Source: a candidate division WOR-3 bacterium UBA6260 (GTDB taxonomy: Bacteria > Hydrothermota > 32-111). From it: a stretch of DNA of 64,000 nucleotides. This document shows positions 2,960 through 19,753 of this stretch, one piece after another (positions within the stretch are counted from its first letter, which is position 1; every line of letters starts with the position of its first letter). The stretch is taken from NCBI GenBank assembly GCA_002441125.1, contig DJVI01000003.1:153383-217382 (forward strand), read 5' to 3'. The position numbers were made by a program, and so were the translations under genes. A model generated the notes under the pieces. That model saw only the letters and a program-made list of their open reading frames with translations, was not told the DNA's origin and did not search any database.

Positions 2960-3396
2960 AAAATAAAAATGATAAAATGTGTTATAAGGTTTGCCAGAAT
3001 TCCTGCCATTATATCATCAAGAAGTATTCCAGTTGCACCTTCAATTTTTTCAAATCTATCGAGAAAAAAAATTTTTGAAATATCGAGGTATCTGAAGATC
3101 AGAATTGAAATAAATATAACTAAGAAATTTTTTGGTAAAAACATTATTGAAATTGTAGCTCCAACAAGTTCATCTATAACTATTCTTTTATCATCTCCAA
3201 AAAATTTTTTCGAGTTGGATATCGAAATATATGAAAGAAAAAGAATCAAAGAGAAAAAATCAAATAGAAGAGTGAAACTACCTTTGGTAAAAAAGAACCA
3301 TAAAAAAAGAAGAAGAAAAGAAACTATTGTTCCGCCACCTTTAATTTTTCCTATAAAAAAAACAGTATTGATAACAGAATAAAAGAATTCGATCAT
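2956..3396 (-). CDS. pgpA: Phosphatidylglycerophosphatase A
   Basis: GGGT, IVIDELVG, FRYLDISK, GILLDDIMAG motifs; membrane protein upstream of cinA. Confidence 0.85.
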   Translation of the reverse strand: MIEFFYSVINTVFFIGKIKGGGTIVSFLLLFLWFFFTKGSFTLLFDFFSLILFLSYISISNSKKFFGDDKRIVIDELVGATISIMFLPKNFLVIFISILIFRYLDISKIFFLDRFEKIEGATGILLDDIMAGILANLITHFIIFIL

Positions 3397-4142
3397 CTGT
3401 AAATCTCTGGAATCTTTTTAAGTTCTTTTATCTCTTCCTGTGAGAAAAGGGTAAGATAGTTTAAAATTATTATAATCCTTTTTTCGTTTTTAAAAATTCC
3501 AACACCTTCTATATATTCCAATTTATTTTCTGGAAGAAAAGGTGGAATACTTTTTATATCTGGTTTTTCAAGCTTAACTATTCCAATGAGTTTATCAACA
3601 TAAAAACCTATCCTAAGTTCGTCGAGTTTCATTATAACTATAGAGCCGTTTTCACTCCTCCTATTAACTTTCAACCCAAACTTTTCTCTAAGATCAAAAA
3701 GAGGAAGAAAACCTTCTTTGTCGTTTAAAACTCCAAAAAAACTTTTGCTTTTCATTCCAATATCCAAAGGATCCTTATATTTTATTATCTGCCTTACAAG
3801 GTCAGAATCAATTCCATACTCCTCTTCGTTCAATTTAAAAGAAACATACTCTTTCTCTTCTTCAGAATCATCTTCCCTTTTTAAAGAATTTTCATCTTTT
3901 GAAAAATACTCACTTTCAACTTTTTGCTCAGGATTTTCTCTCCCTTCCGAAAAATCATCTTTTAAAGGTTTTGAATTTTTTTCATCAACTTTCAGATCTT
4001 TTATCTCTTCTTTTTCAATTAACTTTTCATCTTCACTTTTTGTCACTTCTTTTCTTTCTTCAACTTTTTCTTTTTCCTTATCATCTTTACTTTTTGTTTT
4101 ACCAACATTGAAAAGAGATGAAAGATCAATTTTCTTTTTCAT
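3393..4142 (-). CDS. cheW: CheW-like coupling protein with a long acidic/lysine-rich N-terminal extension
   Basis: C-terminal ~150 aa: YVSFKLNEEEYGID..VRQII, GVLN..G.FLPLFDLREKFGL, IGFYVDKLIGI, YIEGVG; the first ~95 aa are E/K low complexity. Confidence 0.85.
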   Translation of the reverse strand: MKKKIDLSSLFNVGKTKSKDDKEKEKVEERKEVTKSEDEKLIEKEEIKDLKVDEKNSKPLKDDFSEGRENPEQKVESEYFSKDENSLKREDDSEEEKEYVSFKLNEEEYGIDSDLVRQIIKYKDPLDIGMKSKSFFGVLNDKEGFLPLFDLREKFGLKVNRRSENGSIVIMKLDELRIGFYVDKLIGIVKLEKPDIKSIPPFLPENKLEYIEGVGIFKNEKRIIIILNYLTLFSQEEIKELKKIPEIYR

Positions 4143-4971
4143 ACTTTTCCCCCAGAATCTCTTTTAATTTCATTTCAGATTTTTGAGCCCACTTACTGAA
4201 TCTGTTTTTTTTAATAAGGTCTTTCAAAGTATTGATACCTTTTTTTTCCATGCCAGATTTTATATAAACTAATCCCAAATAATAATAAGCTTCAAGTAAA
4301 TTTGGACCTATCTTTATAGCTTCCTTCAAAAAATTAACCGAATCATCAAACATTTCCCTTTCCATGTATATAAGACCGAGATAAAAGTTCGCATACATTA
4401 AAGCAACTTTGTCATTTGAATTTTTTAGAACAAATGTTAGATGTTCTATCGCTTCTCCATAGATACCTTTCTTGAAACAAACAAAACCAAGGTTATTTTT
4501 TGCTATAGAGTTTTCAGGATCTATCTGTAAAACTTTTTGAAAGACTATCATAGCATCATCATACCTTTCCTTGTTTATATAAGCCCATCCCAAAAGATCC
4601 AAAGTCTTGACATCGTTTGGAGCAAGAGAGCTCGCTTTTTCCAAAACCTGAATGGCATCATCGTACTGTTCTTCAACTAAAAAATTCCATCCCTTGTCTA
4701 TATAAGTTGTCAGATCAACTTTCGATATTCTCATATTCTGAACAAAGTTTTCAAAAGAACTTTTATCTGTTTTTTTACTTTTTACCTTTTTGGCTAATTC
4801 TTTTATCTTTAAATTTGACTGAACAAGGAACTCGTTAAGATCTATTATCTCTTTATAAAGGTTTAAAATCTGATTTTTTATAGTTTTCTCATCAAATTTA
4901 TTCGAATCTATCTGGGCTGAAATAATATCTATTTCTTTCTCAAGTTCTTTTTTGAATTCTTTAAATTTCAT
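4126..4971 (-). CDS. Tetratricopeptide-repeat protein with N-terminal coiled coil
   Basis: About 5-6 TPR units (GWAYINKERYDDAMIVFQKVLQIDPEN, NNLGFVCFKKGIYGEAIEHL, AYYYLGLVY). Confidence 0.8.
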   Translation of the reverse strand: MKFKEFKKELEKEIDIISAQIDSNKFDEKTIKNQILNLYKEIIDLNEFLVQSNLKIKELAKKVKSKKTDKSSFENFVQNMRISKVDLTTYIDKGWNFLVEEQYDDAIQVLEKASSLAPNDVKTLDLLGWAYINKERYDDAMIVFQKVLQIDPENSIAKNNLGFVCFKKGIYGEAIEHLTFVLKNSNDKVALMYANFYLGLIYMEREMFDDSVNFLKEAIKIGPNLLEAYYYLGLVYIKSGMEKKGINTLKDLIKKNRFSKWAQKSEMKLKEILGEKYEKEN

Positions 4972-5992
4972 TTACCAGTTCCTCTATCTTTTCTGCTATA
5001 TTTTTTCTATCAAGCACAAAATCAACAGCCCCCGTTTCTTCTGCAGCTTTAGGCATTCCGTATATCAAAGCACTCTCCTTCGATTCAGCAATATTTTTTC
5101 CATTCATCTTCTTTATTATATTAACACCCTCACTTCCATCTTTACCCATCCCCGTAAGAACAACACCTATGATTCTGTTCCTAAAATGTTTTACAGCAGA
5201 TATCATCATTATATCTGCGGAAGGTCTTACAGAATGGTAAGGTGGATCATCCGTATGTATTATGTATCCATTCTCATCAAAAACCATATGTTTTCCACCC
5301 TGAGCAATAACACAATCTCCATTCAAAAGTTTACAGTTATCATAAGACTCAAAAACATTCAACTGTGAAAGGGAATCTAACCTTTCTGCAAAAGATCTCG
5401 TAAAACCTGCAGGCATATGTTGAACTATTGCTATAGCTGCATCTATATTGCCCTTAATTTTTGGAATGATATCCATCAAAGTTTTTGGTCCACCTGTTGA
5501 TGATGCTATAGCAACAAGTTTCGTTGCTTCGATTCTTTCCGATTTAAAAACCTTTTTACTTTTTTCAATCTCAACAATCTCACTACCAACATCTTTCAGG
5601 TTTGCCTTCAACCCTGCTTTCAGTTTTGTCAGGATCTCATTTTTTTTATCCTTGTAATCCAAAGATGAAGGTTTTTCAACAACATCTATTGCACCAAGTT
5701 CAAGTGCTTTTAATGCAATTTTTGAGCCTGTTTTTGTATATGAACTAACAATCAAAACAGGTATATTTTTTATCTTTAAAATATGCTGCAATGCTATAAG
5801 ACCATTTACCTTTGGCATCTCTATATCTAAAGTCACTATATCTGGATCAACTTCTTTTATTTTGTCTATTGCTTCAAGTCCATCACTCGCTTCATCAACA
5901 ACGGTAAACTCCTCATCGGAATTTATAATATCTTTCAAAATCCTTCTAATGAGAGCTGAATCATCAACCACAAGTACTTTAAATTTTTTCAA
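4961..5992 (-). CDS. cheB: Chemotaxis response regulator protein-glutamate methylesterase
   Basis: Receiver VLVVDDS/VTLDIEMP plus esterase triad motifs ASSTGGP, VQHMP, RPSAD, GVVLTGMGKDG. Confidence 0.96.
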   Translation of the reverse strand: MKKFKVLVVDDSALIRRILKDIINSDEEFTVVDEASDGLEAIDKIKEVDPDIVTLDIEMPKVNGLIALQHILKIKNIPVLIVSSYTKTGSKIALKALELGAIDVVEKPSSLDYKDKKNEILTKLKAGLKANLKDVGSEIVEIEKSKKVFKSERIEATKLVAIASSTGGPKTLMDIIPKIKGNIDAAIAIVQHMPAGFTRSFAERLDSLSQLNVFESYDNCKLLNGDCVIAQGGKHMVFDENGYIIHTDDPPYHSVRPSADIMMISAVKHFRNRIIGVVLTGMGKDGSEGVNIIKKMNGKNIAESKESALIYGMPKAAEETGAVDFVLDRKNIAEKIEELVNEI

Positions 5993-6468
5993 ATGTAAAT
6001 CTCTCCATTTTTTATTGAGATAACTCTTAAAATTCCAGTTTTAACATTAAACTCTACAGATCTGCTGTAATCACTTCCAACATCTTCAGCAACAACAGGT
6101 ATCCTGAGTTCCTTAAGCATCCTTCTTGCAATTTCAACATTTCTGTAACCTATAGAATCCTCAACACTCTTTATGAATGTGGAAAACATGTTAGCTCCTC
6201 CAACAAGTTTCGATTCCATTCTGTACTTTTTTGCGCCAAGTTGTTCCATCTCCAAAATAAGGTTAGCAAGACCTGTATCACAGTATTTGTAAGGATTAAA
6301 AACAACATTAGAGTAAGTTCTTGAAGGTAACATGTAGTGTATCATACCACCTATTTTTTTTTCCCTATCGTAAAGAGTCAAAGCGACACAGGACCCAAGT
6401 CCTATTGTCTTTAAAATATCCTCCTCAAAACCTATATTTGCATCAGCAATCTTAATGTTGATTATCAA
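5989..6468 (-). CDS. cheD: Chemoreceptor glutamine deamidase
   Basis: TIGLGSCVALTLYD, GGMIHYMLP, KLVGGANMF, IGYRN, AEDVG. Confidence 0.93.
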   Translation of the reverse strand: MIINIKIADANIGFEEDILKTIGLGSCVALTLYDREKKIGGMIHYMLPSRTYSNVVFNPYKYCDTGLANLILEMEQLGAKKYRMESKLVGGANMFSTFIKSVEDSIGYRNVEIARRMLKELRIPVVAEDVGSDYSRSVEFNVKTGILRVISIKNGEIYI

Positions 6469-7261
6469 TTTTTTTAAAAACCCTCTCTTTAATGTTTATA
6501 GACTTATAAAGTGTTTTTGTGTTACCAGTCAAGATCTCTACCTTGCCAAGTACAAGGATCCCTTCAGGAAGTAAAAGATCATAGAAGACATAAAACATTT
6601 TTTCCTGAAATTCTTTTGAAAAATAGATCAGAACATTCCTACATATTATAAAATCAAATTTGCCAAGAGTAAAGAGTATATTTTCTTCCTTTATATCTAA
6701 AATTTTAAAATATACATTCTCTTTCAATGACTCATCCAAATAGAAGTAATCTCCAATTTTTTTAAAATATTTTTTAACTTCCAAATCGTTAAGCTCTATA
6801 AGTGAATAGTCCCTGTACATACCTAAATGTGCCTTGTTGATAGCATCCTCATCAACATCTATTCCAACTATTTCATAGTTAAAATCTTTTTTAGCACTAA
6901 GTTTTTTCATAATTATGTTTAGAGAGTAAACCTCTTCACCTGTTGAACAACCTACACTTAAAATCCTTATCCTCTCTTTTTTTCTGATTAGTTCTGGGAA
7001 AATATATAGCTCAAGAAAATCGAAAGTTTCCCTGTTTCGAAAAAACCTCGTTACATTTATTGTTAATGTTTCTTTTAATATGTTTAATTCTTCTTTATCA
7101 CTTTTCAAAAATTGCAAATATTCCAAAAAAGTTTTCTTTCCTGTAGCTCTCATCCTTACCATAAGTCTTCTTTTAAAAGGTCTCTCCTTATATATACTTC
7201 CATCTATACCTATCTTTTGACTTATGAAATCCACAAGGATCTTATAATCTATCTCATCCAT
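6452..7261 (-). CDS. cheR: Protein-glutamate O-methyltransferase
   Basis: LTINVTRFFR, ILSVGCSTGEEVYSL, FDFIICRNVLIYF, GILVLGKVE. Confidence 0.95.
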   Translation of the reverse strand: MDEIDYKILVDFISQKIGIDGSIYKERPFKRRLMVRMRATGKKTFLEYLQFLKSDKEELNILKETLTINVTRFFRNRETFDFLELYIFPELIRKKERIRILSVGCSTGEEVYSLNIIMKKLSAKKDFNYEIVGIDVDEDAINKAHLGMYRDYSLIELNDLEVKKYFKKIGDYFYLDESLKENVYFKILDIKEENILFTLGKFDFIICRNVLIYFSKEFQEKMFYVFYDLLLPEGILVLGKVEILTGNTKTLYKSINIKERVFKKIDNQH

Positions 7262-8852
7262 TTTTTACTGTGTTTATAGTTTTTTTCAAAATCTCATTGT
7301 TAGGTTGTAATTTCAAAGCTTCCTCCCAAAATTTAAGAGCATCATCCTTTTTACCTTTTCTGTATTTTATGTTACCCAGTTTATAAAAGACATCAAAATC
7401 ACCTTTGTTAAGGTTTACTATCTGTTCAAGTATAATTTCCGCTGCCTCAAAATTTTTTTCGAGAAAATAAAAATCTACCAAAGATTTGTAAGGGAGAATC
7501 TCATCTCCACAGGTTTCTATACTTTTTTTCAAAAAATTTTCAGCTGTTTCATGTTTTCCAACTGAAAGATAAATCTGGCCGATATTGTAATAGTATTGCC
7601 AAACGGATGGATCATTTTTTGATAGTTCAAAAAATATTTCGGTCGCCTGATTTACCATTCCATATTCAAAGTATATAAGGGCCAAATAGTATTTCGCATA
7701 TTTTAGTCCCTTCTCTATATTCAAAGCCATTCTTAATTTTTCTTCAGCCTCAGTAAAAAGATTCTCCTTAAAAAGTAGAATTCCATAGTTTGCAAGAATC
7801 TTTGGATTTTCAGGCTCCAATTTTACAGCCCTTTCATAAAACTCTTCAGCTCTTTCAAACATACCTAACCTTTCATAGGTGAGAGCAATATTGTTAAAAA
7901 GGGATACATTTACTATGCCCAATTTTAAAAGTTCCTCAAAATATTTTAAAGATTCATTGTAATTGCCCATTCTAAAATATATCAAACCAAGATAAAAATA
8001 AGACTTTGCGTCACTCTTATCTATCTGAATTATGTGCTTAAACTCTCTTATCGCTTCATCATACATCTCCGTTAAAAGGAAGGCAATTCCAAGGTTGTAA
8101 TGTTCCATTATCTTATTATGAGAATCTATAGCTACTTCAGAACTCTTCTCTTCTCCAGAATATATATATCCGAGTTTTAAAAGTGTGTAAAGTTCTTTAC
8201 CTGTTTCATATTTGCCTATAGTTGAGTTTTCAAAAATATCTTTCAATGTTTTATAACCATCAACGAGAGAAAAAATATACCTTGTTGACTGATTTTCAAT
8301 ATCTTCTTCTTTTTTTATACCTGTTTTTACAAGAACCGTTTTTTCGGAAGGTAACTCTTTTTCAATAATTGACCATTCATCTATTTTTCTTGCCTCTTCA
8401 AGTAAAATATCGTCAGCCTCTATCTCAACAGTTATCGTCTCGGTAACTGGTTCTATGTTAGGTTCAAAATTAAAGAATCCACTCTTCCAGGTTAAAAGAG
8501 TAAAGATACTATCTGTTATCTGCTGTTTGATCCTTTTCTCAAGAACCTCTTTAGAAACAAAATTCATCTCAACAAGTATATCGCCCAATCTTTTTGATGA
8601 TTTTATCTCCTCTTGATACTCTAAAGCTTTTTCAAGTTGTTCTTTGGTTATATCGTTTGATTTCAAAAGAAGATTACCTATTCTTTCTTCCCTATTAACT
8701 ATAGAGCAATATATTATTTTTCCATCTTTGAAAAAAATATCTCCAAAGTTCTTTTTGTCTGATACACTTAAAACACCTGTTTTTCTTCCAAGTGAAAGTA
8801 ACTGTATTATATCAGGTAAAGATGCCTCTTGAAGATTTCCTCTTATTGCCAT
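7254..8852 (-). CDS. DUF4388 (PATAN-like) + tandem MshEN-like motif + TPR protein
   Basis: N-terminus IRGNLQEASLPDIIQLLSLGRKTGVL..IFFKDGKII and FTLLTWKSGFFNF (DUF4388); RIGNLL/RLGDIL motifs; ~8 TPRs. Start placed at ATG 8852 (GAGG 7 nt upstream). Confidence 0.8.
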   Translation of the reverse strand: MAIRGNLQEASLPDIIQLLSLGRKTGVLSVSDKKNFGDIFFKDGKIIYCSIVNREERIGNLLLKSNDITKEQLEKALEYQEEIKSSKRLGDILVEMNFVSKEVLEKRIKQQITDSIFTLLTWKSGFFNFEPNIEPVTETITVEIEADDILLEEARKIDEWSIIEKELPSEKTVLVKTGIKKEEDIENQSTRYIFSLVDGYKTLKDIFENSTIGKYETGKELYTLLKLGYIYSGEEKSSEVAIDSHNKIMEHYNLGIAFLLTEMYDEAIREFKHIIQIDKSDAKSYFYLGLIYFRMGNYNESLKYFEELLKLGIVNVSLFNNIALTYERLGMFERAEEFYERAVKLEPENPKILANYGILLFKENLFTEAEEKLRMALNIEKGLKYAKYYLALIYFEYGMVNQATEIFFELSKNDPSVWQYYYNIGQIYLSVGKHETAENFLKKSIETCGDEILPYKSLVDFYFLEKNFEAAEIILEQIVNLNKGDFDVFYKLGNIKYRKGKKDDALKFWEEALKLQPNNEILKKTINTVKNG

Positions 8853-8854
8853 TA

Positions 8855-10513
8855 TCAAACCTCAAACTCTACATACAATCTGTCAGTATCGTTGATCCAT
8901 TCCTTTATCAACTTTGAAGAATCATACTCTCCTTTTTTGACAAACTCTCTTTTTTTAACCGTTCCAGCGGGGAAGACCTTTTTTATGATTTCTTCATTTA
9001 TGTTGTTTTGATATTTTTGTAGTTCAACAAAATATTTTTCAATTTCCGATAACGGTATCGAAACATAATCGAGTAAAAAATTGAAAATAATATCGTTTAA
9101 TTTTATACCATACTTTTGCAGTAAATTTTTATAATAATTTTTTCTTATATAAAGTGTTGTTGGCTGTATATTGTAAGATGTGTACCTGTTAAAAAGATCG
9201 AGGATCTCTCTATCATCTATACTGAATTTTCTTTGGAGTGTTATAACTTTTACGATGTTAGATAAAAGTATATTCTTAACGATTGGAAGGTATTCTTTTT
9301 TTTCATAAATTCTATCAAGATCATCTATAAGAACGATGTCCGATTCATTTAAAAATTTCATCACATAAAAATTGTTAGATGCCTGCTCAATGTTATCTTT
9401 GTTGATGAATATTACCCTTTTATCTGTTAGATTATTAAAAAGTGCGTTCAGAATGTGTGTTTTCCCGGTTCCAGAACTTCCGGTTATTAGAACTATCTTA
9501 TCGACATTTACACCATTAATTATCTCGTTAATTTTGTTAACAACATGTCTGTTGGAAGAATCTATTATAAAATTATCCATATTCATCAGAATACTCGATT
9601 CTTTTTCAAAGAAGGAAAAATAGTTTATCTTTTCTTTTAAAACATTTATCTTCTCTCGTAAAATTTCAACTCTATCTGGATCAAAGAGCATTGTTTCAAT
9701 CTCTTTAGATTCAGCTTTAAACTTTTTTACATTCAAAAGACCATACTCTTTATGGAGTTCAACGAGTTTTTTTACATTTTCTGTAAACTTTTCAAATTCC
9801 CTTTTTATCTGCCCTATATCTTTTGAATTTATAACATTTTTAAGATTTTCAACATTGAAACCTTTCATCTCCCAAACATAAAGTTTTTCGATAAATTCTT
9901 CTCTATTTTCCTGTTCATCAAGCTTTTCTTCAACTCCAGCTTCTTTTTTCACCTGACTTATAAAATCTACAAAATTTATAAAATTGTTCTCATTTTTCTT
10001 CTCTTTTATCAGGTTATAGATTTTTGACTTTTGTAAAAAGAGTTTTATCCTATCAATATTTTTTATCTCATCTATTTTTTTTGATGAAGTTATTAAGAGA
10101 AAAGAGTTAGATTTTAAACTAAAGAAAAGATCCTCTATAATTTTTGAAAGTTCAGGATGTTTTTCTATATCATCAAAATTTTTTACAAGTAGTATATTAG
10201 CGTATGGGAAAATATTTTTGAATTTGACAAGAGTGTCTATCTTTTTCAACTCAAAAACCTGTTTTATATCTATTATAAAAAGATACAATTCTTTATATCT
10301 TTGAGAAAGGTCGAAAAAGAGTTTATCAACAAAATCGTTGGCTGAGTTATCGTTTGAATATATTATAACAGACTTGCTTGTAAGGTAACCTGTAGAAAGA
10401 GTGTAGGAATATTCAGATTTTAAGAATGGATCATTGGGTAAGTTTTCCTTTACCGTCTTTAAATTAAAACATGTAAAATTTTCTTGAAACTCTTTTACTT
10501 CATTTTGGTTCAT
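8855..10513 (-). CDS. DnaA/Hda-like AAA+ ATPase with two ATPase-like modules and no DNA-binding domain IV
   Basis: C-terminal module FIIDSSN..LITGSSGTGKTHILNAL..DIVLIDDLD; N-terminal degenerate module ANILLVKNFDD..FLLITSSK. Confidence 0.7.
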   Translation of the reverse strand: MNQNEVKEFQENFTCFNLKTVKENLPNDPFLKSEYSYTLSTGYLTSKSVIIYSNDNSANDFVDKLFFDLSQRYKELYLFIIDIKQVFELKKIDTLVKFKNIFPYANILLVKNFDDIEKHPELSKIIEDLFFSLKSNSFLLITSSKKIDEIKNIDRIKLFLQKSKIYNLIKEKKNENNFINFVDFISQVKKEAGVEEKLDEQENREEFIEKLYVWEMKGFNVENLKNVINSKDIGQIKREFEKFTENVKKLVELHKEYGLLNVKKFKAESKEIETMLFDPDRVEILREKINVLKEKINYFSFFEKESSILMNMDNFIIDSSNRHVVNKINEIINGVNVDKIVLITGSSGTGKTHILNALFNNLTDKRVIFINKDNIEQASNNFYVMKFLNESDIVLIDDLDRIYEKKEYLPIVKNILLSNIVKVITLQRKFSIDDREILDLFNRYTSYNIQPTTLYIRKNYYKNLLQKYGIKLNDIIFNFLLDYVSIPLSEIEKYFVELQKYQNNINEEIIKKVFPAGTVKKREFVKKGEYDSSKLIKEWINDTDRLYVEFEV

Positions 10514-11122: not shown

Positions 11123-12226
11123 TCAATCACCTTTTATTGTGTTGAAAACATCCGAATCACTTGAATCGATTCCTCTTAATTTTAACTTGAACTCATCAAC
11201 ATTTGTTACAGCTTGTATCGCTTCATCGTAAGAAATTATTCCACTCTTATAGAGTCTCATAATAGATTGATCGAAGGTGTGCATCTGGTACATAGCACCC
11301 TCTTCTATAGCAGTTGGAATAAGAAGAGTTTTAATTGGGTCAAGTAGATACTCTTTTATTGTTGGAGTATTAATCATAACCTCCGTTGCTGGGACTCTTC
11401 CCTTTCCATCTATTCTTGGAAGCAATCTTAAAGATACAACACCAACAAGTGTTGTTGCTAAAAGAACCCTTATATGCTGTTGCTGATGTGGAGGATAGAA
11501 TGAGAGTATTCTGTTAATAGTTTCCGATGCGTTCAATGTATGTAATGTTGAAAGAACGAGATGTCCAGTATCAGCAGCTTTTATGGCAACATCCATAGTA
11601 TCAACATCCCTTATCTCTCCCATGAGTATAATATCTGGGTCCTGCCTCAAAACATGTTTTAAGGCGCTTTCATAGGAATTTGTATCGTTATTAACTTCTC
11701 TCTGTGAAATAACTGATTTTTTATCCCTAAAAAGATACTCTATAGGATCCTCTATCGTAATTATATTTTTTGAATAGTTTTCATTTATGTATTCGATCAT
11801 CGCAGCAAGAGTTGTAGATTTTCCTGAACCTGTTGTTCCTGTAGTTAATATCATTCCTCTCGGTCTTTCAGCCATTTCTTTTAAAACTGGTGGAAGATTC
11901 AATTCATCAATAGATTTCGCTGATATAGGTATTGTTCTCATAGCAATAGCAACACTTCCCCTCTGAAGGTAAACATTGACTCTGAACCTTGATAAACCTG
12001 CAACTCCTATTGCGAAATCTATCTCCTTTTTTGCTGCAAACTCTTCCTGTTGATTTTTGGTCATTATTTTCAAAGCAATATTTTTCAACTCATCTGGACT
12101 CATCGGTTCTTCTTTCAAAATCTGTAATTTTCCATCTATCCTTAAAATTGGAGGAGTCCCAGCTTTCAAATGAAGATCTGATGCTCCATCCTTAACCATC
12201 TTTTCAAGTAAGGTTTTCAATTCCAT
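11123..12226 (-). CDS. PilT/PilU-family type IV pilus retraction ATPase (PilU-like: lacks AIRNLIRE)
   Basis: ASDLHL, GTTGSGKSTTLAAM, TIEDPIEY, LRQDPDIILMGEIRD, TGHLVLSTLHT, MHTFDQS. Confidence 0.92.
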   Translation of the reverse strand: MELKTLLEKMVKDGASDLHLKAGTPPILRIDGKLQILKEEPMSPDELKNIALKIMTKNQQEEFAAKKEIDFAIGVAGLSRFRVNVYLQRGSVAIAMRTIPISAKSIDELNLPPVLKEMAERPRGMILTTGTTGSGKSTTLAAMIEYINENYSKNIITIEDPIEYLFRDKKSVISQREVNNDTNSYESALKHVLRQDPDIILMGEIRDVDTMDVAIKAADTGHLVLSTLHTLNASETINRILSFYPPHQQQHIRVLLATTLVGVVSLRLLPRIDGKGRVPATEVMINTPTIKEYLLDPIKTLLIPTAIEEGAMYQMHTFDQSIMRLYKSGIISYDEAIQAVTNVDEFKLKLRGIDSSDSDVFNTIKGD

Positions 12227-12235: not shown

Positions 12236-12796
12236 TTATTGAACTCTTTCAACATATTCGCCTGTTCTCGTATCGATTCTTATTTTATCTCCAACATTTA
12301 AAAAGAGAGGTACTGTAACCTTTAGACCAGTATCACAAACAGCAGGTTTGCTTCCTCCAGAGACAGTATTCCCTCTCACTCCGGGCTCAGTTTCAACAAT
12401 TTCAAGTTCTACGAATATTGGCACATCGATATCTATGACTCTATCCCCGACAGAAAGAAGTGTTACATCCATATTCTCTTTCAGATAAAATTTTTTTTCC
12501 TGCAAAATATCCTCTCCAACACTTATCTGCTCAAATGTTTCATTGTTCATAAAAACATATTCTTCGCCATCCCTGTACAAAAACTGGAAAGGATTCCTTT
12601 CAAGTTTTATCTCGTTTAAACTCTTTCCAGAATCGAAAGTCATATCAACGATATTACCATTCTCAAGATTCCTCAACTTTGTTCTAACAAAAGCTCCCCC
12701 TTTTCCAGGTTTAACATGTTGAAAATCTATCACAAGATAGATCTTCCCTTCATATTCGAATGCAAACCCTTTTCTAATATCTGCCGTTGTAGCCAT
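12236..12796 (-). CDS. efp: Elongation factor P
   Basis: HVKPGKGGAFVRTKLRNL, PGVRGNT, VPLFL..GDKIRIDTRTGEYVER. Confidence 0.98.
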   Translation of the reverse strand: MATTADIRKGFAFEYEGKIYLVIDFQHVKPGKGGAFVRTKLRNLENGNIVDMTFDSGKSLNEIKLERNPFQFLYRDGEEYVFMNNETFEQISVGEDILQEKKFYLKENMDVTLLSVGDRVIDIDVPIFVELEIVETEPGVRGNTVSGGSKPAVCDTGLKVTVPLFLNVGDKIRIDTRTGEYVERVQ

Positions 12797-12806: not shown

Positions 12807-14243
12807 TCACTTTTTTCTTTGATTTATGAATTTTATCCATTCTTGAAAGTTCCCATCAAAGGAAACATTCTCATTTTTCTTCTCATCTTTTCTATTTTCT
12901 TCTTTTTTTTCTTCAACTTTTTCTTCCTTCGGCTCTTCGGTTGTAACTTTTGAACTATCCTCTTTTTTCAAATTGAAATCAACTTCTTTCTTTTCCTCTA
13001 TTTCAGGTTCTTTTTCATCATTTGCTTTCTTTTCTGTTTTTTCCTCTATATTTTCATCAATCTTTTTTTCTTCATCTTTGGAAATGGAATCAACTGCACC
13101 AAACTTTTTCTCAAAATCTTTTTTCTCCTCATCTGTGACACTTTCAACAGACAAAGTTTTATTCCACCTTTCTATAAGTTCAGCCCTGTTCTCTTTCTTC
13201 TCTTCATTGTTATCTTTAAACATCTCCTCATCTACTTCCTCTTTTATCATAAGCTCCCTAAGTGTTCTAATTTTTTCAGCATACTTTTCTTCCTCTGGAT
13301 TTTGGCGGAGAAGTACCTGATATATCTCCAGAGCTTTTTCATATTTTTTCTGCTCTATATAAATATTAGCTATCTCCTCTGAAAAATATTGATATTTTTT
13401 AGCACCACTCAATTCATAAGGTATTATTTTTTTCTCTTCAACTTTCCCCTCTTTTTTTAAAAAAGGATCAACATCTTTCTTTATAAACTTTTCTTCATCA
13501 ATAATATTAAGTTCTTTACTTTCAACAACATTCTCTTTTTTTTCATCTTCATCTTTTTTCAAATCGTAGGATTTTTTTGATCCTTCAAATTCTTTTTCTT
13601 TGTTTTTTTCTATCTCTTTTTCTTGAACTGCTTTTTCCTTTTTCTTTTCCTTCATTTCTTCTTTCTTTTCTTCATCATCAAAACTTATAACATTTGAAGA
13701 ATGTTGAATTATAAAATCATCAATTATATTTTTCTCTTCCTTTTCATCCTTTTGAACAACCTCTTTTTTCTCTTCCTCTTTCTTTAAAATTTTCTCCCTT
13801 TCCTCTTGTATCCTTTTCTCTTCATCGATTTTTCCATTTATTATTTTAATTTCCCTCTTCGCATCCTCATTCAACGGGTCAAGGAAAATTATCGTATCAT
13901 ACAATTTTAAAGCTTCCTGAAGATTACCTTCCCTTTTCCTTATTTCGGCAAGTTCATTGAGTGCAACAATGTTCTGTGGGTCAAGTTTTATAACCTTTTC
14001 AAAATTTTTTGAAGAGTTGGTAAAATCTTTTTTTTCTTTAAGAGCTTTTCCCATAAGTACAAGTGCTGAAACATTATCAGAATTATACCTTAACCCTTCC
14101 TTTAAAACTGAAATGGCATCATCAACCATACCTATTTTAATATAAATGTTTGCAAGTTTTATAAAAGATTTCGACTTTGGATTTTTAGCAATATCTTCAA
14201 GTAACTCTTTTATCTCTTTCTCATACATACTATAAGAATTCAA
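12807..14243 (-). CDS. TPR protein with long acidic low-complexity regions
   Basis: N-terminal TPRs (KLANIYIKIGMVDDAISVLKEGL, VIKLDPQN), internal TPR EEIANIYIEQKKYEKALEIY, C-terminal FQEWIKFI. Start moved to TTG 14243 (GGAGG upstream) because the longer ORF-track start overlaps a consensus promoter. Confidence 0.75.
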   Translation of the reverse strand: MNSYSMYEKEIKELLEDIAKNPKSKSFIKLANIYIKIGMVDDAISVLKEGLRYNSDNVSALVLMGKALKEKKDFTNSSKNFEKVIKLDPQNIVALNELAEIRKREGNLQEALKLYDTIIFLDPLNEDAKREIKIINGKIDEEKRIQEEREKILKKEEEKKEVVQKDEKEEKNIIDDFIIQHSSNVISFDDEEKKEEMKEKKKEKAVQEKEIEKNKEKEFEGSKKSYDLKKDEDEKKENVVESKELNIIDEEKFIKKDVDPFLKKEGKVEEKKIIPYELSGAKKYQYFSEEIANIYIEQKKYEKALEIYQVLLRQNPEEEKYAEKIRTLRELMIKEEVDEEMFKDNNEEKKENRAELIERWNKTLSVESVTDEEKKDFEKKFGAVDSISKDEEKKIDENIEEKTEKKANDEKEPEIEEKKEVDFNLKKEDSSKVTTEEPKEEKVEEKKEENRKDEKKNENVSFDGNFQEWIKFINQRKK

Positions 14244-14274
14244 AATTCCTCCAATAATTACTATTAAAATATAA

Positions 14275-14303
14275 ATTATAATTAAAATAAACAAAAGTGT
14301 CAA
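14275..14303 (-). promoter_or_regulatory. Sigma70-type promoter for the TPR-efp-pilT/U-mglA...recA operon
   Basis: Minus strand TTGACA (14303-14298)-N17-TATAAT (14280-14275), perfect consensus. Confidence 0.75.
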
Positions 14304-14316
14304 CAATTCTTTTGTA

Positions 14317-14344
14317 TTGATTCTTGTTAAAAATATTATATAAT
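14317..14344 (+). promoter_or_regulatory. Sigma70-type promoter, probably leaderless, for the stand-alone receiver gene
   Basis: TTGATT-N16-TATAAT, ATG 6 nt downstream at 14351, no Shine-Dalgarno. Confidence 0.5.
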
Positions 14345-14350
14345 TTTTTT

Positions 14351-14716
14351 ATGAAAAAGATTATTGTTGTTGAAGATGATCCAGATATCGTTGAACTGGT
14401 TACAGATATCCTTTCAGACAGTTACCAGATAACTTATGAAACTGATGTTGAAAAATTGTTTAAAAGGACAGATATGGAAACATTCGATCTTATAATAACT
14501 GATTTCCTTTTGGAAAAATACTCTGCAAAAGATATAACAGAAAAATACAAAAATAAAAAATTTCTTATAATTTCTGCTTTATCTGTTAATTCTTCAAAAA
14601 TCTCATCTTTAGTTGATAACAAGAAAATTTTTTATCTCCAAAAGCCTTTCGTTGTAGATGATTTGATGGATAAAGTGGATAATATTCTTAAGTTAACTTT
14701 TCGAAACTTTTCATAA
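14351..14716 (+). CDS. Single-domain response regulator receiver (CheY-like)
   Basis: IIVVEDD, FDLIITD (phosphoacceptor Asp), IISA, YLQKPF; start placed at ATG 14351. Confidence 0.8.
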   Translation: MKKIIVVEDDPDIVELVTDILSDSYQITYETDVEKLFKRTDMETFDLIITDFLLEKYSAKDITEKYKNKKFLIISALSVNSSKISSLVDNKKIFYLQKPFVVDDLMDKVDNILKLTFRNFS

Positions 14717-15323
14717 TTTCTTTATACTCTTCACCTTTCAACATACTTTGAAAATGGTCAAGTGATAGATAGATATAAATTACAGCAAAAAGTGAAGACA
14801 TCCCAACATATATAGTGCTATAGTTCTTCCAGTAGAGAATTATTGGAAAAATGGAAAAGAGTATCAAACCAAGTAATGCTGGTCTTTTTATTATAGGCGT
14901 TAGCACCATAAAAATAAAAAGATAAGATATCAGAATCTCCGGGAAAATTGCAAGGAGTGCACCTAAAGTTGTTGAGAGCCCTTTTCCTCCCTTAAAATTC
15001 AGAAATATAGGAAAAACATGACCCAAGACTGAAACAAGACCAGAAAAAACTGTTAAAAGATCTTTCTGAATTAGATTGTCGGGACAAAATTTTCTGACAA
15101 GTATAACAGGCAAAGCTCCTTTAGAAATATCAAATATCAATGTTAAAATACCTATAATTTTACCACCTTCAATAAGAACATTAGTAGCACCTATATTTTT
15201 TCTTTTCCCTTCTTTTCTTATATCTTTTCCAGTTTTTAACTTATAAAATAGATAACCTGAAGGGAAAGAGCCGACAAGGTAAGAAAAGAACAAAATCAAA
15301 AATAAATATATGTACACTTTCAT
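14688..15323 (-). CDS. plsY: Glycerol-3-phosphate acyltransferase
   Basis: SYLVGSFPSG, DIR..G..NIGATNV, DISKG, LGHVFPIFLNFKGGKGLST. Confidence 0.92.
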   Translation of the reverse strand: MKVYIYLFLILFFSYLVGSFPSGYLFYKLKTGKDIRKEGKRKNIGATNVLIEGGKIIGILTLIFDISKGALPVILVRKFCPDNLIQKDLLTVFSGLVSVLGHVFPIFLNFKGGKGLSTTLGALLAIFPEILISYLFIFMVLTPIIKRPALLGLILFSIFPIILYWKNYSTIYVGMSSLFAVIYIYLSLDHFQSMLKGEEYKEIMKSFEKLT

Positions 15324-15363: not shown

Positions 15364-16965
15364 TTATTTTACTTCTCTTATTATATGCGGTGTTATGAAT
15401 ATCAAAACTTCTTTATTGTTCTTTGAAGAAATATCCCTCTTGAATAGATGTCCTAAAATAGGAATCGCTCTTAGAATCGGTATTCCACTTTCAGATCTCT
15501 GATCCTCCTGCAATATGAAACCTCCCATAACAACAGTTTCACCATCTGAAACCATCTGAACAGTTTTAGCCTGTGTTTTATTTATTATTGGTTGACCAGC
15601 AGCATCTGCAGTAACTGTTGAAAGCTCAGCTTCTATTTCGAGAGTTATATCCTCAGATGAGTTAACATGTGGCACAACATTTAAAATAGTACCAACTGTG
15701 TATTTTGTATAGTTAACTGTTCCATCAGTGTTAATTGTAGTTAAGAAGAATTCTTTTCCACCAAGTATGTTCGCTTGGGTGTTGTTAGTTGTTGTTATTC
15801 TTGGATTTGATACTGTTTTAGATTTACCAACAACCTCAAGAGCATCAAGTTTTGCACTCAACTGACCAAAATCCCTTGTTGTTCCTATACTAACAGTTCC
15901 AGAAGTTGCACTTGAAGGACCCACACCTTGTATACCTCCACCAAGAGTAACCTGATTTATTCCAACATTGTTTAAAGTCCATGATATTCCAAGTTCTTTT
16001 GAATTGTTTAACTGGATCTCAACAACTTTTACAACAATTTCAACCTGAAGATTTTTCTTATCAAGGTCCTCTATTATACCCTGTATCCTGCTTTGAACAT
16101 CCTGAATATCTTTGACTATTATAGAGTTTGTTCTCTCATCTATTGTTATTATTCCCCTTTTTGAAAGAACAGGTCTTAAAGCGTTCTGTAAAACTTTAGG
16201 GTTTGCAAATTCCAACTTATACACTGTTGTTATAAGTGGCAAAGCATCCTGCATTGCTGTTTGTTCAGAAGAAAATTCTTTGTATGTCCCAACTCTTATC
16301 ATATTTGGGTATTCTTGATATGTTAAACCAGCGAGTCTTGTTACCATATCGAATATATCCTTCCATGGGACATCTTTCACATGCACAGTCACCCTTCCGG
16401 TCACGGAACTTGAAATAACAAGGTTGACTCCAACATAGTCAGCTATTCCTCTCAAAAGTGTTACAACATCAGCATTCTCAACATCGAGAGAGATTAAAAA
16501 GTCAGAATTTTTATTTGTAGCACCTTCCATTTGTTCTTTTGCTTCAGGTTTTGAAAGGGATGCCTTCCATAGTGGAATATCTGTCTTTGCTGTTTTATCG
16601 AGTGTTATCACTATGTCATTTCCTTTGTACTCTTTAGAATATGAATACTTATCATCAGTCTCAATCATAATCCTTAAAAAGTTTGTCTCATAATCTTTTA
16701 TGATCTCAAAAGAAACTATTCCAGACCCATTGTTAACTTTATAGTATCCACCATTCAAACCATTATCTATACCGATAAGGTCTATCACTATCATGTTCGG
16801 TGAAGTTATCGAAAAATCAGTAAAATTGGCAACCTTGTCAAGTGAAAATCTTACCTGTGTTTTACCGGCAGATGTGTTAACCTCTATATCGTTAAGAAGC
16901 CCTAAGGAGAAAGCAGAAAGAGAAAGAAAAAGAACAAAGGACAAAATAAAGATTCTCTTAACCAT
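15364..16965 (-). CDS. pilQ: Type IV pilus secretin with AMIN domain
   Basis: Signal peptide, AMIN-like P..IVIDL, ISLDVENADV, IDERTNSIIVKD, SNPRITT.NN..A.I..G, DGETVVMGG, GIPILRAIPILGHLFK, EVLIFITPHII. Confidence 0.93.
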   Translation of the reverse strand: MVKRIFILSFVLFLSLSAFSLGLLNDIEVNTSAGKTQVRFSLDKVANFTDFSITSPNMIVIDLIGIDNGLNGGYYKVNNGSGIVSFEIIKDYETNFLRIMIETDDKYSYSKEYKGNDIVITLDKTAKTDIPLWKASLSKPEAKEQMEGATNKNSDFLISLDVENADVVTLLRGIADYVGVNLVISSSVTGRVTVHVKDVPWKDIFDMVTRLAGLTYQEYPNMIRVGTYKEFSSEQTAMQDALPLITTVYKLEFANPKVLQNALRPVLSKRGIITIDERTNSIIVKDIQDVQSRIQGIIEDLDKKNLQVEIVVKVVEIQLNNSKELGISWTLNNVGINQVTLGGGIQGVGPSSATSGTVSIGTTRDFGQLSAKLDALEVVGKSKTVSNPRITTTNNTQANILGGKEFFLTTINTDGTVNYTKYTVGTILNVVPHVNSSEDITLEIEAELSTVTADAAGQPIINKTQAKTVQMVSDGETVVMGGFILQEDQRSESGIPILRAIPILGHLFKRDISSKNNKEVLIFITPHIIREVK

Positions 16966-16973
16966 TTATTACC

Positions 16974-17549
16974 TCACTTTTTTTTCTTTGTATCAATATT
17001 CTTAACCAATTTGATAACTTTATTTCTAACAACACCATACTCATCAAGTTTAAAAATAACTGAATCCTGTTCTATTTTTAGAAGTATTCCATTTTTTATT
17101 TTCTGTCCTTCGTAAAATATGAAACCTAACCCTGATGCATCTTTCAACAATGCGAGTTTCCCATTTTTGCCTTTTATCATTCCAAAATACATCGCACTCT
17201 CTATATCAATTTGAACTTTCCCTTCCCTCTGTTGTTCAAGTATTGAAACGAAAGGATCATTTTTTGTTTTTGTTTTAAAAGTGTATGTTTCGATTGTAAA
17301 GGGAAGAGTTGTTGTAGTATCGTACGGTAAAGAATCTGAAACAGTTTCCTGATTCTGTGTTTCAACATTCGTATCCGAATTTGAAACCAAACTGTCGGTA
17401 GTTTTTGTATTACCCTTTGGTGTTAACGCTTTGGAAGATTTTTCTATTGCTGAATTTACAGGATTTCCCCTTGAGCATGATATAAAAGAGAATATCAAAA
17501 AAAGCGTTAACGATAAAAGAAGGATTGATCTATTTTTTCTTTTTAACAT
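16974..17549 (-). CDS. pilP: PilP-like pilus assembly lipoprotein
   Basis: Lipobox-like FISC, DPFVSIL, ALLKDASGLGFI; position between pilO and pilQ. Confidence 0.7.
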   Translation of the reverse strand: MLKRKNRSILLLSLTLFLIFSFISCSRGNPVNSAIEKSSKALTPKGNTKTTDSLVSNSDTNVETQNQETVSDSLPYDTTTTLPFTIETYTFKTKTKNDPFVSILEQQREGKVQIDIESAMYFGMIKGKNGKLALLKDASGLGFIFYEGQKIKNGILLKIEQDSVIFKLDEYGVVRNKVIKLVKNIDTKKKK

Positions 17550-18123
17550 TTTTACCTTCCTCTGTTTTTGTTTGGGCTCCTGGACCTTTATAGTAGGTTG
17601 ACATAGTTAAAACAACCTGAATAGTGTTAAGGTTTTCATCTGATGTTTTCAAAGGTTTTATAGCTATACTGTTAACTTTGGTAATCCTCTTTTGATTCCC
17701 CATATCTGTTAAAAACTGTCCAAGAGATGAGTAAGTTGCATTCAATGTTATTTCATGGTTTAGATTAGCATAATCGTTTGTGACTGATACACTCAAAGGT
17801 TTAATATTCATTACTTTAACATTGTTTTTATTAGCGTAAACTGTCAGAGTATCAAGCGCATCTTCAAGGAGTTGGGAGTCTGGTAGCATTTTATTTGCAA
17901 TTTTTAACTGGTTTTCAAGTATTTTCAATCTTTTTGAATATTCAGCATAACTTGCTGCAACCTTTCTCGCTTCGTTAACCTGAGTGTTAAGTTTATCGTT
18001 CTCAGCTTTCAGTTGAGCAATAGTTTTTGAATTTTTTGAATAGTCGAATTTCCAGTATAGAAAGAGGATCGCTATCAGAACAACCACCGTTACGATTGTT
18101 TTTATTAAATTATTTTTTTCCAT
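17530..18123 (-). CDS. pilO: Type IV pilus assembly protein PilO
   Basis: N-terminal TM helix, coiled coil, LPD, ATYSSLGQFL..RIT. Confidence 0.85.
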   Translation of the reverse strand: MEKNNLIKTIVTVVVLIAILFLYWKFDYSKNSKTIAQLKAENDKLNTQVNEARKVAASYAEYSKRLKILENQLKIANKMLPDSQLLEDALDTLTVYANKNNVKVMNIKPLSVSVTNDYANLNHEITLNATYSSLGQFLTDMGNQKRITKVNSIAIKPLKTSDENLNTIQVVLTMSTYYKGPGAQTKTEEGKNVKKKK

Positions 18124-18132
18124 CTGCCACCC

Positions 18133-18711
18133 CTATTTTTTGTAGGTACAATTTATTTCAAAAGAGATTATATCGTAGCCACCCTCTGGTTTGTTGACTA
18201 TATCTTTCAATACAAAATTATCAAAATACTCATTCTCTTTTTTCATGTTTGTCAAAAGTTCTGTTATCATAAGGTTTGAAAAGGTTTTTCCTTTCAACAC
18301 CAACCTTTTCTCTTTTACTGTCAAATCTTCAAGCCAAACATACTCTGGAAGAAGTTGATTTAACTTATCAAGAAGTTGAGCGTAAGCAAACTTTCCGGCT
18401 ATAAGATTTTTTATAGTTTCGATTTTTGCATTTATCTCATTCTCTTTTTCTTTCATCTTCTCAACTTTTGCAACCTCTTCCTGCAATTTTTTGAGTTCAT
18501 TCTGTTTTTCACTTATCTTCTTTTTCAACTGGTTCATCTGTCCAACCTGTGAAAAATGTATTATAAATATCAAAATGAAAAGAAGGACAGCGACACCTAT
18601 CGAAACGAAAAATCCGAGATTGGTTGGAATCTTTATACCTATTTTAGGTATTCCTCCCTCACTCTTTTTTCGCTTTCTCTCTTCTTCTGGAAGTAAATTT
18701 ATCTCTATCAT
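18133..18711 (-). CDS. pilN: Type IV pilus assembly protein PilN
   Basis: MIEINLLP, TM helix, coiled coil, LPEYVWLEDL. Confidence 0.9.
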   Translation of the reverse strand: MIEINLLPEEERKRKKSEGGIPKIGIKIPTNLGFFVSIGVAVLLFILIFIIHFSQVGQMNQLKKKISEKQNELKKLQEEVAKVEKMKEKENEINAKIETIKNLIAGKFAYAQLLDKLNQLLPEYVWLEDLTVKEKRLVLKGKTFSNLMITELLTNMKKENEYFDNFVLKDIVNKPEGGYDIISFEINCTYKK

Positions 18712-18724
18712 CTTTACCTCTCTT

Positions 18725-19753
18725 TTATGGATTTCTTAAACTCAAACCTATAGAAGGAACAAGTAATGGCGAAACTTTTTCCAATTCTTCGAGAGTTAAA
18801 AGCCCTTCTTTAATTTTTATTTTTTTGAAAGGATCAAGTTTCTCAACATTTATTTCAAATCTATTCTTAAAATAATCCAAAATTGCAGGTCCATTCGCTC
18901 CACCACCTGATAGGTATATCTTTTCTATCTTTTCTCTATTTGTAAAAGGAATAGCCCTTTCAATATGTGTGCATATCTCATCATAGAATGAGTCAAGCCC
19001 TTCCTTTATCTTTTCCTCAGGTATTTCGTTTAAAGTTTCACCTTTGAAAACTTTGTCCAACTGTTCTTTTGTTATTCCCGGTATCTTCTGAAGCAAAGAT
19101 TTTATAGCAGTTGTGACATCTCTTGTAAAAAGGTTGTTTGTTCCCTCGATAAAGCTCAATATTGTATTCTCATAACCGATATGGACTAATGTTACCATTT
19201 CGTTTGGAACTGGTTCATAATTCGCTTCAAAACAATTTTGGATAGTGAAAGCTGGAACATCGATAACAGTTGGATTTAACTCCATATCTTTGATAAGAGT
19301 TATGAATGGATGGAGAATCTCCTTTTTAGCTGCCACAAGCAAAACATCTATCTTACCCTGTTCATCTGAAGGTCCTAAAACTTTGTAATCGAGTTGAACA
19401 TCCTCTATACTGTAAGGAATGTTTGTTTCAGCTTCCTGTTTCACCATTATTGAGAGTTCATTATCCTTCATCTGATCCATCTTCAATTTCTTTACTATAA
19501 CTCCCCTTCCAATAAGAGCACAAGAAACATCTTTCTCTTTTACATCCCTTGAAACTAAAAGATTCTTAACTGTATCAACTAGCTGCAATCTGTCCATAAT
19601 CTCACCATCAGCGATGGCGATATCTGAAAGTTCAGAAAACCCAAAATCTTTCAAAACAGGTTCTCCTGTTGAAAGATCTACGATTGAGTATTTTATGAAA
19701 GAACTTCCGATGTCAAGACCGAGATAAGTTTTTTTTCTTTTTTTAAAAGCCAT
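18725..19753 (-). CDS. pilM: Type IV pilus assembly protein PilM
   Basis: LGLDIGSSFIK, DVLLVAAKKE, IDVPAF, VHIG, IYLSGGGA, IGLSLR; start placed at ATG 19753 after AAGGTGG. Confidence 0.93.
   Translation of the reverse strand: MAFKKRKKTYLGLDIGSSFIKYSIVDLSTGEPVLKDFGFSELSDIAIADGEIMDRLQLVDTVKNLLVSRDVKEKDVSCALIGRGVIVKKLKMDQMKDNELSIMVKQEAETNIPYSIEDVQLDYKVLGPSDEQGKIDVLLVAAKKEILHPFITLIKDMELNPTVIDVPAFTIQNCFEANYEPVPNEMVTLVHIGYENTILSFIEGTNNLFTRDVTTAIKSLLQKIPGITKEQLDKVFKGETLNEIPEEKIKEGLDSFYDEICTHIERAIPFTNREKIEKIYLSGGGANGPAILDYFKNRFEINVEKLDPFKKIKIKEGLLTLEELEKVSPLLVPSIGLSLRNP

Follow-up and report, generated by a model that had tools for sequence, protein, structure and literature searches.

We describe here a gene, hereafter X, in a window of 64,000 nucleotides (nt) from the candidate division WOR-3 bacterium UBA6260 (contig DJVI01000003.1, positions 153,383 to 217,382 of the forward strand). 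X is an open reading frame (ORF) of 552 amino acids (AA) at window positions 8855-10513 on the minus strand, with its stop codon at 8855-8857. Comparison with its relatives indicates that X belongs to a family with a duplicated DnaA core, which has lost the DNA-binding domain and is fixed between a small GTPase of the MglA type and a PATAN/TPR scaffold protein. Judged by its motifs, the window's X is a derived variant of this family, with a dead N-terminal module devoid of a lid and a C-terminal module stripped of the arginine finger and sensor II. We propose, with moderate confidence, that X has left replication and acts as a nucleotide-gated adaptor in a polarity module of an MglA paralogue and a PATAN/TPR protein, through which a Frz-like Che pathway directs type IV pili (PilT). 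To our knowledge, the described roles of initiator-clade AAA+ proteins (DnaA, Hda, DnaC, IstB, Orc/Cdc6) are confined to DNA transactions. What the window newly provides is the derived variant of X, the definition of its middle (M) domain and C-terminal tail, and the association of X with an MglA lineage of its own.

The start ATG of X shares bases with the TGA of the upstream mglA gene in an ATGA overlap, and 2 nt separate the TGA of X from the ATG of the downstream PATAN/TPR gene. Full-length homologues (n=25) were 40-88% identical to X; in databases, X-type proteins are labeled 'DnaA/Hda family protein', 'AAA family ATPase' or hypothetical. All regions of X gave a ratio of nonsynonymous to synonymous substitution rates (dN/dS) of 0.05-0.2, and purifying selection thus acts across all parts of the protein. 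The full-length AlphaFold2 (AF2) model, built with 21 homologues, had a mean predicted local distance difference test score (pLDDT) of 78.6 and a predicted template modeling score (pTM) of 0.47. It divides X into an alpha/beta part (residues 1-167), a low-confidence connector (171-201), a helical part (201-305), a second alpha/beta part with a helical lid (319-513) and a disordered end (518-552). The sequence-only reading of this DNA had described translational coupling to mglA, a helical linker between two modules and a tryptophan-containing C-terminal tail. All three were found: the coupling as the ATGA overlap, the linker as an autonomous conserved domain, and the tail as the best-conserved element of X. 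As a side observation, the database representative P0001, listed as 100% identical to X, departs from the window's translation at S145L and D373N (LLITSSKK versus LLITSLKK; INKDNIE versus INKNNIE), a two-residue difference which indicates that a near-identical strain is present in public data.

Pfam detects only the C-terminal half of X, through generic P-loop/AAA families and Bac_DnaA. The C module scored 25.7 bits with Bac_DnaA, whose gathering score is 23, and profile-profile alignment (hhalign) with intact DnaA-like modules gave a probability of 99%. The NCBIfam Hda model TIGR03420 matched residues 311-502 with an E-value of 1.2e-14, at 54.5 bits against a cut-off of 194.8. The Walker A motif GSSGTGKT and the Walker B motif, which had been placed in a DnaA domain-III-like context from the letters of the sequence, are therefore backed by a Bac_DnaA match above the gathering score. 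For a motif table, both modules were aligned with the genome's own DnaA, together with 21 homologues. In the Walker A motif of the C module G345, G348, G350, K351, T352 and H353 were invariant in the 21 sequences, and the Walker B acidic pair was DD in 16/21 and DN in 5/21 homologues. Other DnaA features kept by the C module are the F..F..N lead-in, the 'xxR' after sensor I and the 'IQP' motif.

The rest of the catalytic set is incomplete. The arginine finger is changed from R to L, the sensor I D to Q, Y or H, and the sensor II R to S; compared with the genome's own DnaA, box VII TRF reads DLF and box VIII VRELN reads LSEIE. No conserved Arg was found at the arginine-finger and sensor II columns in the 21 homologues. 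A deletion has removed the segment that aligns with the basic stretch after Walker B of DnaA (K/R-x-R-[ST]-Q-E-E), and the two helices before it, between beta2 and beta3, are shorter than in DnaA. DnaA protomers and Hda act on the ATP of a neighbor via the arginine finger, and in DnaA the sensor I Asp supports tight nucleotide binding. The C module thus looks able to bind nucleotide and looks catalytically incomplete. Of the ATPase that had been proposed for this half, the intact Walker A and B motifs stand; a complete DnaA ATPase does not, given the replaced finger, sensor I Asp and sensor II Arg.

Scans against sequence families gave no match for the N module. Modeled alone (residues 1-177), it folded with a pLDDT of 91.6 and a pTM of 0.88, and in a Foldseek search of the PDB all of ranks 1-18 were DnaA or Hda, with query-normalized template modeling scores (TMq) of 0.56-0.69. 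The DnaA chains among these were 8btg, 3r8f, 8bv3, 1l8q, 2hcb and 2z4r, and the Hda chains 5x06, 3bos and 3sc3; DnaC, ORC, DnaI and IstB followed in rank. When the N-module profile was aligned by hhalign with the intact N modules of distant relatives, the probability was 86% (E 5e-6) and the Walker positions were in register. The motifs themselves are destroyed, with SNDNSAND at the Walker A position and LLVKN at the Walker B position, and the lid subdomain is absent. In the predicted secondary structure both modules have two short helices between strands 2 and 3, and X has the features of the initiator clade by fold: an additional-strand catalytic glutamate (ASCE) core, the two-helix insertion between beta2 and beta3, and DnaA/Hda as the closest structures. 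We show by modeling that the N module is, to all appearance, a DnaA/Hda-fold pseudo-ATPase, in line with the earlier suggestion of the same fold with a decayed Walker A. Decaying junk was ruled out as an explanation of this module by its dN/dS of ~0.1 and its confident fold. Both points on which the claim of a double DnaA-like protein could have failed were looked at: neither a different AAA+ clade nor a lack of association with mglA/pil genes was found.

The region between the modules, formerly seen as a linker, is by its distribution a domain in its own right. This M domain is a helical module of ~105 AA (EKLYVWEMKGFNV...LHKEYGLL...LFDPD), which may be called the 'LYVWEMKGFN' domain; AF2 places helices at residues 201-305 with a pLDDT of 79-94. 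Run against 1.8 billion representative proteins, the family profile retrieved 852 proteins at E <= 0.001, many of which matched profile positions 200-300 only, often repeatedly. Rescanning with a model of these positions showed 1-11 copies of the M domain per protein, sometimes as the sole domain. Proteins with several copies also contain DUF835, DnaA-type AAA+ domains and zinc ribbons, and P0034/P0178, the sole multi-copy cluster with an organism name, comes from a Thermoplasmata archaeon. No credible match was obtained for the M-domain profile among Pfam families and PDB sequences; the best match, ribosomal L29 (E 0.004), looks like noise from helical composition and was rejected. Separately, we observed that P0032, P0034, P0035, P0038 and P0098 are large proteins with up to 11 tandem M domains, in which the repeats are combined with at least one of DUF835, Bac_DnaA-type AAA+ and zinc ribbons. 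A DnaA-type AAA+ module is unusual in an archaeal protein. Pfam scans of the large relatives for fusions with MglA, PATAN or TPR domains revealed none; only DnaA-type AAA+, DUF835 and zinc ribbons were seen.

The second newly defined constant element of the X family, besides the M domain, is the C-terminal tail. In the window's X it reads EWINDTDRLYVEFEV, with the pattern W-x7-D-R-L-Y-V-E-F-E-V-COOH, and the pattern W-x(5-8)-[DE][RK]-L-x-x-[ED]-[YF]-COOH is common to all architectures of the family. Within the window's clade the mean pairwise identity was 79% for the tail, 62% for the M domain and 40%, the lowest, for the N-terminal pseudo-ATPase; compared with the closest relatives, the tail had a dN of 0. 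The disordered spacer that carries it (residues 516-535) had the highest dN/dS in X (~0.2). Conservation of a peptide that ends a disordered arm would be the mark of a docking motif. With cheR and cheB in the operon, a pentapeptide like the NWETF of chemoreceptors was also considered; its aromatic spacing does not match and the idea is speculation only. A further conserved motif, FxxFIxxVKxEAGV, lies in the connector, where F181, F184, K189, E191, A192 and G193 are invariant.

The protein search yielded three distant relatives, and genome contigs a dozen more, that resemble X in middle region and gene position and differ from it in the state of their modules. One of these, L031 (697 AA, labeled Gemmatimonadetes), has two complete DnaA-type modules: it scored 616 bits, above the cut-off, with the DnaA equivalog model TIGR00362, and both modules correspond to DnaA positions 103-341. 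DnaA models outscored Hda in all five relatives scanned, and IstB matched three of the five with scores below those of Hda. Less diverged relatives keep the arginine finger and sensor II, in some other lineages one module is without the finger, without sensor II or without both, and L033-L035 consist of the N module and M domain only (~385-400 AA); every family lineage keeps at least one intact P-loop. Because the intact modules of less diverged relatives score best on the DnaA model, we conclude that the X family evidently descends from a duplicated DnaA domain III, as shown by these profile comparisons. In a maximum-likelihood tree of the modules, intact N modules (with DnaA) and C modules were split only weakly (79/91). 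If the proposed role is true, the family would offer a natural gradation, from a fully catalytic tandem protein to a pseudo-ATPase joined to a binder, which would help in asking what the initiator fold does without hydrolysis. We also noted that in L036 (1948-3771) and L037 (5329-7158), from related metagenome-assembled genomes (MAGs), a single DnaA-like AAA+ module and M domain precede, in one continuous frame, an LptB-like ATP-binding cassette (ABC) ATPase to whose N-terminus they are fused; the L037 fusion lies in an lptC-lptA-lptB-rpoN operon, with no mglA in the 12-kb locus, and the fused proteins of both loci are without the family tail.

With the whole-protein DnaA model NF001154, X scored 37.8 bits against a cut-off of 410, and TIGR00362 was not among the matches. 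Pfam scans of N-terminal, middle and C-terminal pieces of X (1-180 and 406-552 included) found neither DnaA_N (domain I) nor Bac_DnaA_C (domain IV), and the model shows only disorder after the lid; the earlier statement that no domain IV helix-turn-helix is present was right. Both Walker motifs of DnaA occur in the C module only, and the box VII and box VIII arginines of DnaA are missing from X. X shares the domain III fold of DnaA (TIGR00362, PF00308; 8btg, 3r8f, 2hcb, 2z4r) in both modules, and differs from it in lacking domains I, II and IV (DnaA-box binding), in having the core duplicated around a novel helical domain, and in lying in a motility/polarity operon with a normal dnaA elsewhere. 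Hda/HdaA resembles X as a DnaA-type AAA+ protein without a DNA-binding domain, and Hda is the best NCBIfam match of the C module. Unlike X, with two modules in 552 AA, Hda is a single module of ~230 AA in different genomic contexts, and X is without the arginine finger, the working residue of Hda. Membership among the IstB/DnaC helicase loaders was not supported, with IS21_help_AAA scoring 20 bits against a cut-off of 200. Comparison of the whole of X with PDB sequences by phmmer returned KaiC and zeta toxin, matches at the level of the P-loop only, which were set aside as uninformative.

The window's X carries the full set of features of an unnamed mglA-X-PATAN family: a DnaA-type module, the M domain (WEMKGFN...LFDP), the [DE][RK]L..[ED][YF] tail and placement between mglA and PATAN-TPR. 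In the window's phylum a relative of X was present in 98 of 272 species genomes, nearly always in single copy; the window-type form (552-560 AA) was restricted to the window's own family (13 genomes, five genera). The genes of the window run in the order TPR, efp, pilT-family ATPase, mglA, X, PATAN(DUF4388)/TPR, cheR, cheD, cheB, TPR and cheW. Of 24 genome loci (WOR-3, TA06, Stahlbacteria and unclassified MAGs), 21 share the order pilT-mglA-X-PATAN/TPR-cheR-cheD-cheB-TPR-cheW, which also recurs in all metagenome loci examined, including relatives 36% identical over 40% of X; this synteny agrees with the motility operon recognized by the sequence-only reading. The PATAN/TPR gene stands immediately 3' of X in 21/24 loci, and a TPR gene adjoins X, L031 included, wherever X keeps the tail and the downstream neighbor was read. 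In the window, the PATAN insertion contains the MshE-related motif for cyclic di-GMP (c-di-GMP) NF053729 (8520-8684, residues 59-113; 49 bits against a cut-off of 38), and the neighbor of X may thus sense c-di-GMP. No replication gene was a conserved neighbor of X in the compared loci, and an ordinary full-length dnaA (456-codon reading frame) lies elsewhere in the genome.

The mglA gene upstream of X is not the only one. It stands directly upstream of X in the 41 genomes for which both coordinates were listed, and the window's genome has two MglA genes, 58% identical. The other is part of an mglB (165 AA)-mglA (195 AA) pair, convergent with a gene for a 562-AA methyl-accepting chemotaxis protein (MCP), on contig C29 at ~54.4-56.1 kb (locus L039, 1318-4094); given this canonical pair, the X-coupled MglA of the window is a second paralogue. 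By a hand count made without phylogenetic correction, at least two MglA matches occurred in 80 of 98 X-bearing genomes versus 12 of 174 genomes without X. The second MglA copy was preceded by mglB in 21/21 genomes (20 fetched and the window's own), and an adjacent mglB was never seen beside the X-coupled MglA in the loci compared. In a tree of 30 MglAs one branch with support of 100/99 divided MglB-coupled from X-coupled proteins. X thus occupies, beside its own MglA lineage, the fixed place that MglB occupies beside the canonical copy. The X-coupled MglA keeps the intrinsic Arg (DRTLFFD) and Gln (VPGQ). Its lineage has the P-loop GPGRSGKT, with an invariant Arg for the Leu of the MglB-coupled GPGLGGKT, and the aligned X-coupled copies bear a basic C-terminal extension. 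A separate MglA lineage accompanying X, with the canonical mglB-mglA kept, points to where a partner of X may be sought.

In the adaptor role proposed here, the C module would bind ATP and hydrolyze it slowly or only with the help of a partner, and so would serve as a switch and not as a motor. As in DnaA, Orc/Cdc6 and DnaC, its nucleotide-bound face would meet another initiator-type module, in X the pseudo-ATPase N module of its own or of a second chain, and this contact would alter the shape or oligomeric state of X, with the helical M domain spacing or dimerizing the two modules. The invariant acidic-aromatic motif at the end of the disordered arm would dock on a partner; the leading candidate is the TPR protein encoded next to X, since every tail-keeping X gene has a TPR gene beside it. 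The assembly might then connect the X-coupled MglA, with its P-loop Arg, basic tail and lack of an adjacent MglB, to the PATAN/TPR scaffold and PilT. If this is true, the MglA polarity paradigm gains an ATP switch through the family of X.

Several points weigh against this proposal. The functional links of X are guilt by association throughout, and three relatives have other contexts, L031 with a TPR gene only and L036/L037 with the LptB fusions. Nucleotide binding by the C module is read from motifs, with the sensor I Asp replaced and the Walker B pair changed to DN in the minority of homologues given above. The pTM of the full-length model leaves the relative arrangement of the domains unfixed. 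In the module tree the window-type N module did not group with the intact N modules; its branch, of length 2.4, arose on the C side, where the branching was not resolved. Since the tree could not place this long branch, the orthology of the module is argued from position and the hhalign match.

A fuller picture, possible and in our view rather doubtful as a whole, is a two-nucleotide (ATP and GTP) polarity device. A DnaA-derived pair of pseudo-ATPase and ATPase would be a second, ATP-based switch that co-evolved with its own MglA paralogue, and would be docked by its invariant C-terminal peptide on a c-di-GMP-sensing PATAN-TPR protein; the device would serve type IV pili in WOR-3, TA06, Stahlbacteria and Gemmatimonadota. 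The M domain would be a new interaction module common to X and archaeal DUF835 proteins, and the whole a never-described use of the initiator fold.

The rival that survives best, which we nevertheless hold to be improbable, is that X is a GTPase-activating protein (GAP) or guanine nucleotide exchange factor (GEF) of the adjacent MglA, replacing MglB (as GAP) or RomR-RomX (as GEF) for this copy, with its activity set by ATP. The X-coupled MglA never has an adjacent mglB and the other paralogue always does, X and mglA overlap by ATGA, and the X-coupled lineage has its own invariant P-loop Arg, all of which would suit such a regulator. X has no Roadblock/longin fold, however, and does not resemble any known GAP or GEF; Pfam scans of X, whole and in pieces, gave no match to Robl_LC7. 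Five Roadblock genes lie elsewhere in the window's genome, and three extra Roadblock genes outside the operon could serve the X-coupled MglA. A GAP or GEF activity would, moreover, be a special case of the adaptor proposal and not an exclusive alternative to it.

Quite unlikely, in our estimate, is an assembly or remodeling ATPase doing mechanical work on TPR/PATAN or pilus-motor complexes. The best PDB matches of the full-length model are tandem AAA+ unfoldases such as p97, but these matches (TM ~0.26, rmsd, the root-mean-square deviation, ~23 A) reflect only two AAA-like modules in a row. With TMq of 0.24-0.28 and rmsd of 22-27 A for p97, X does not belong to the p97/NSF-type tandem AAA+ proteins, and this clade was dropped as a candidate since the N module alone ranks DnaA/Hda first and p97 far lower. 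One module being dead and the other without finger and sensor II, sustained hydrolysis is unlikely.

A role at replication itself deserves still slightly less credence. X would link replication or the cell cycle to pili by assembling with DnaA, or would act like Hda on DnaA-ATP or the sliding clamp; the DnaA/Hda fold of both modules, and the very DnaA-like less diverged relatives with intact finger and sensor II, speak for it. Both finger and sensor II are gone from both modules of X, however, and the basic segment after Walker B is deleted. A regular-expression search of the whole of X found no clamp-binding motif of the QL[SP]LPL type, domains I and IV are lacking, and there is no conserved replication neighbor. 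Because the contact residues are gone from X, co-oligomerization with DnaA or Hda-like action is unsupported. The sequence-only reading had proposed an initiator-clade ATPase co-opted for motility or polarity, or for coupling pilus activity to the cell cycle through co-oligomerization with DnaA; the co-option is supported by fold and synteny, and the coupling through DnaA is not upheld. We give the least credit to binding of single-stranded DNA or RNA by the initiator-specific helices, for pilus-dependent DNA uptake or another nucleic-acid transaction: DnaA domain III binds single-stranded DNA, 3r8f is among the fold matches and X lies near pilT and pilMNOQ genes, but in the C module the beta2-beta3 helix pair is shortened and the basic segment after it missing, and the conserved neighbors are MglA, PATAN and Che signaling, not competence genes.

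A related known system is the polarity module of Myxococcus xanthus (MglA, MglB, RomR/RomX, SgmX, FrzS, SopA; Frz), which likewise joins MglA to TPR proteins, pilus ATPases and Che-type enzymes. Its components include no AAA+ protein; in the X-bearing genomes, the companion of a second MglA lineage is a DnaA-derived protein and not MglB. Co-occurrence of PATAN proteins is on record with SgmX (PMC11580455) and with MglA/MglB (PMC4316618). A survey of prokaryotic small GTPases reported PATAN genes near some mglA genes; its main text does not mention DnaA, and its single AAA match (AAA_21) concerns excluded ABC transporters (PMC4316618). Text searches of the literature found no description of an X-type protein.

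The positions of X, its parts and its neighbors are collected in Table 1.

Table 1. Coordinates of X, of its parts and of the neighboring genes in the window.
Feature	Position	Strand	Basis
Gene X, tandem DnaA-domain-III-derived protein, 552 AA	8855-10513	-	ORF, homologues, dN/dS
N module, residues 1-170	10004-10513	-	AF2, Foldseek, hhalign, motif table, dN/dS 0.12
Connector, residues 171-200, low-confidence	9914-10003	-	pLDDT <50 for 171-201
M domain, residues 201-305	9599-9913	-	conservation, standalone and repeated copies, AF2
C module, residues 309-515, AAA+ core and lid	8969-9589	-	Bac_DnaA, Hda model, hhalign
C-module Walker A GSSGTGKTH, residues 345-353	9455-9481	-	invariant residues
C-module Walker B IVLIDDLD, residues 393-400	9314-9337	-	homologue alignment
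Disordered spacer, residues 516-535	8909-8968	-	pLDDT ~35
C-terminal short linear motif DSSKLIKEWINDTDRLYVEFEV	8858-8908	-	conservation
mglA paralogue dedicated to X, 206 AA	10510-11130	-	Arf/Ras matches, ATGA overlap, tree
PilT-family pilus ATPase	11123-12226	-	T2SSE E 1e-50; conserved upstream of mglA
PATAN (DUF4388)-TPR protein	7254-8858, likely start ATG 8852	-	DUF4388 E 7e-38 and TPRs
cheR	6452-7261	-	ORF, Pfam of orthologous genes, conserved order
cheD	5989-6468	-	ORF, Pfam of orthologous genes, conserved order
cheB	4961-5992	-	ORF, Pfam of orthologous genes, conserved order
TPR gene between cheB and cheW	4126-4971	-	ORF, conserved order
cheW	3393-4142	-	ORF, conserved order
efp	12236-12796	-	conserved head of gene row
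TPR/coiled-coil gene upstream of efp	12807-14306	-	conserved head of gene row

The single CheA of the window's genome is encoded on another contig (C13, 102-120 kb, locus L038), in the row MCP (1117 AA)-cheW-cheY-cheA-cheC-TPR (902 AA)-PATAN (371 AA)-three Roadblock/LC7 genes-TPR. With the CheA row and the three Roadblock genes on that contig, the Che/MglB half is encoded apart from the operon of the window. The placement of efp between the TPR/coiled-coil gene and pilT is seen also in L001, L004 and L014-L025, where X is only 40% identical. About 1 kb upstream of the gene row lies a pilM-pilN-pilO-(unassigned 191-AA ORF)-pilQ operon (secretin, AMIN domain; 15364-19777, minus strand), and between the two there are an ORF of 211 AA (14688-15323, minus strand) and a divergent receiver-domain gene (14324-14716, plus strand).

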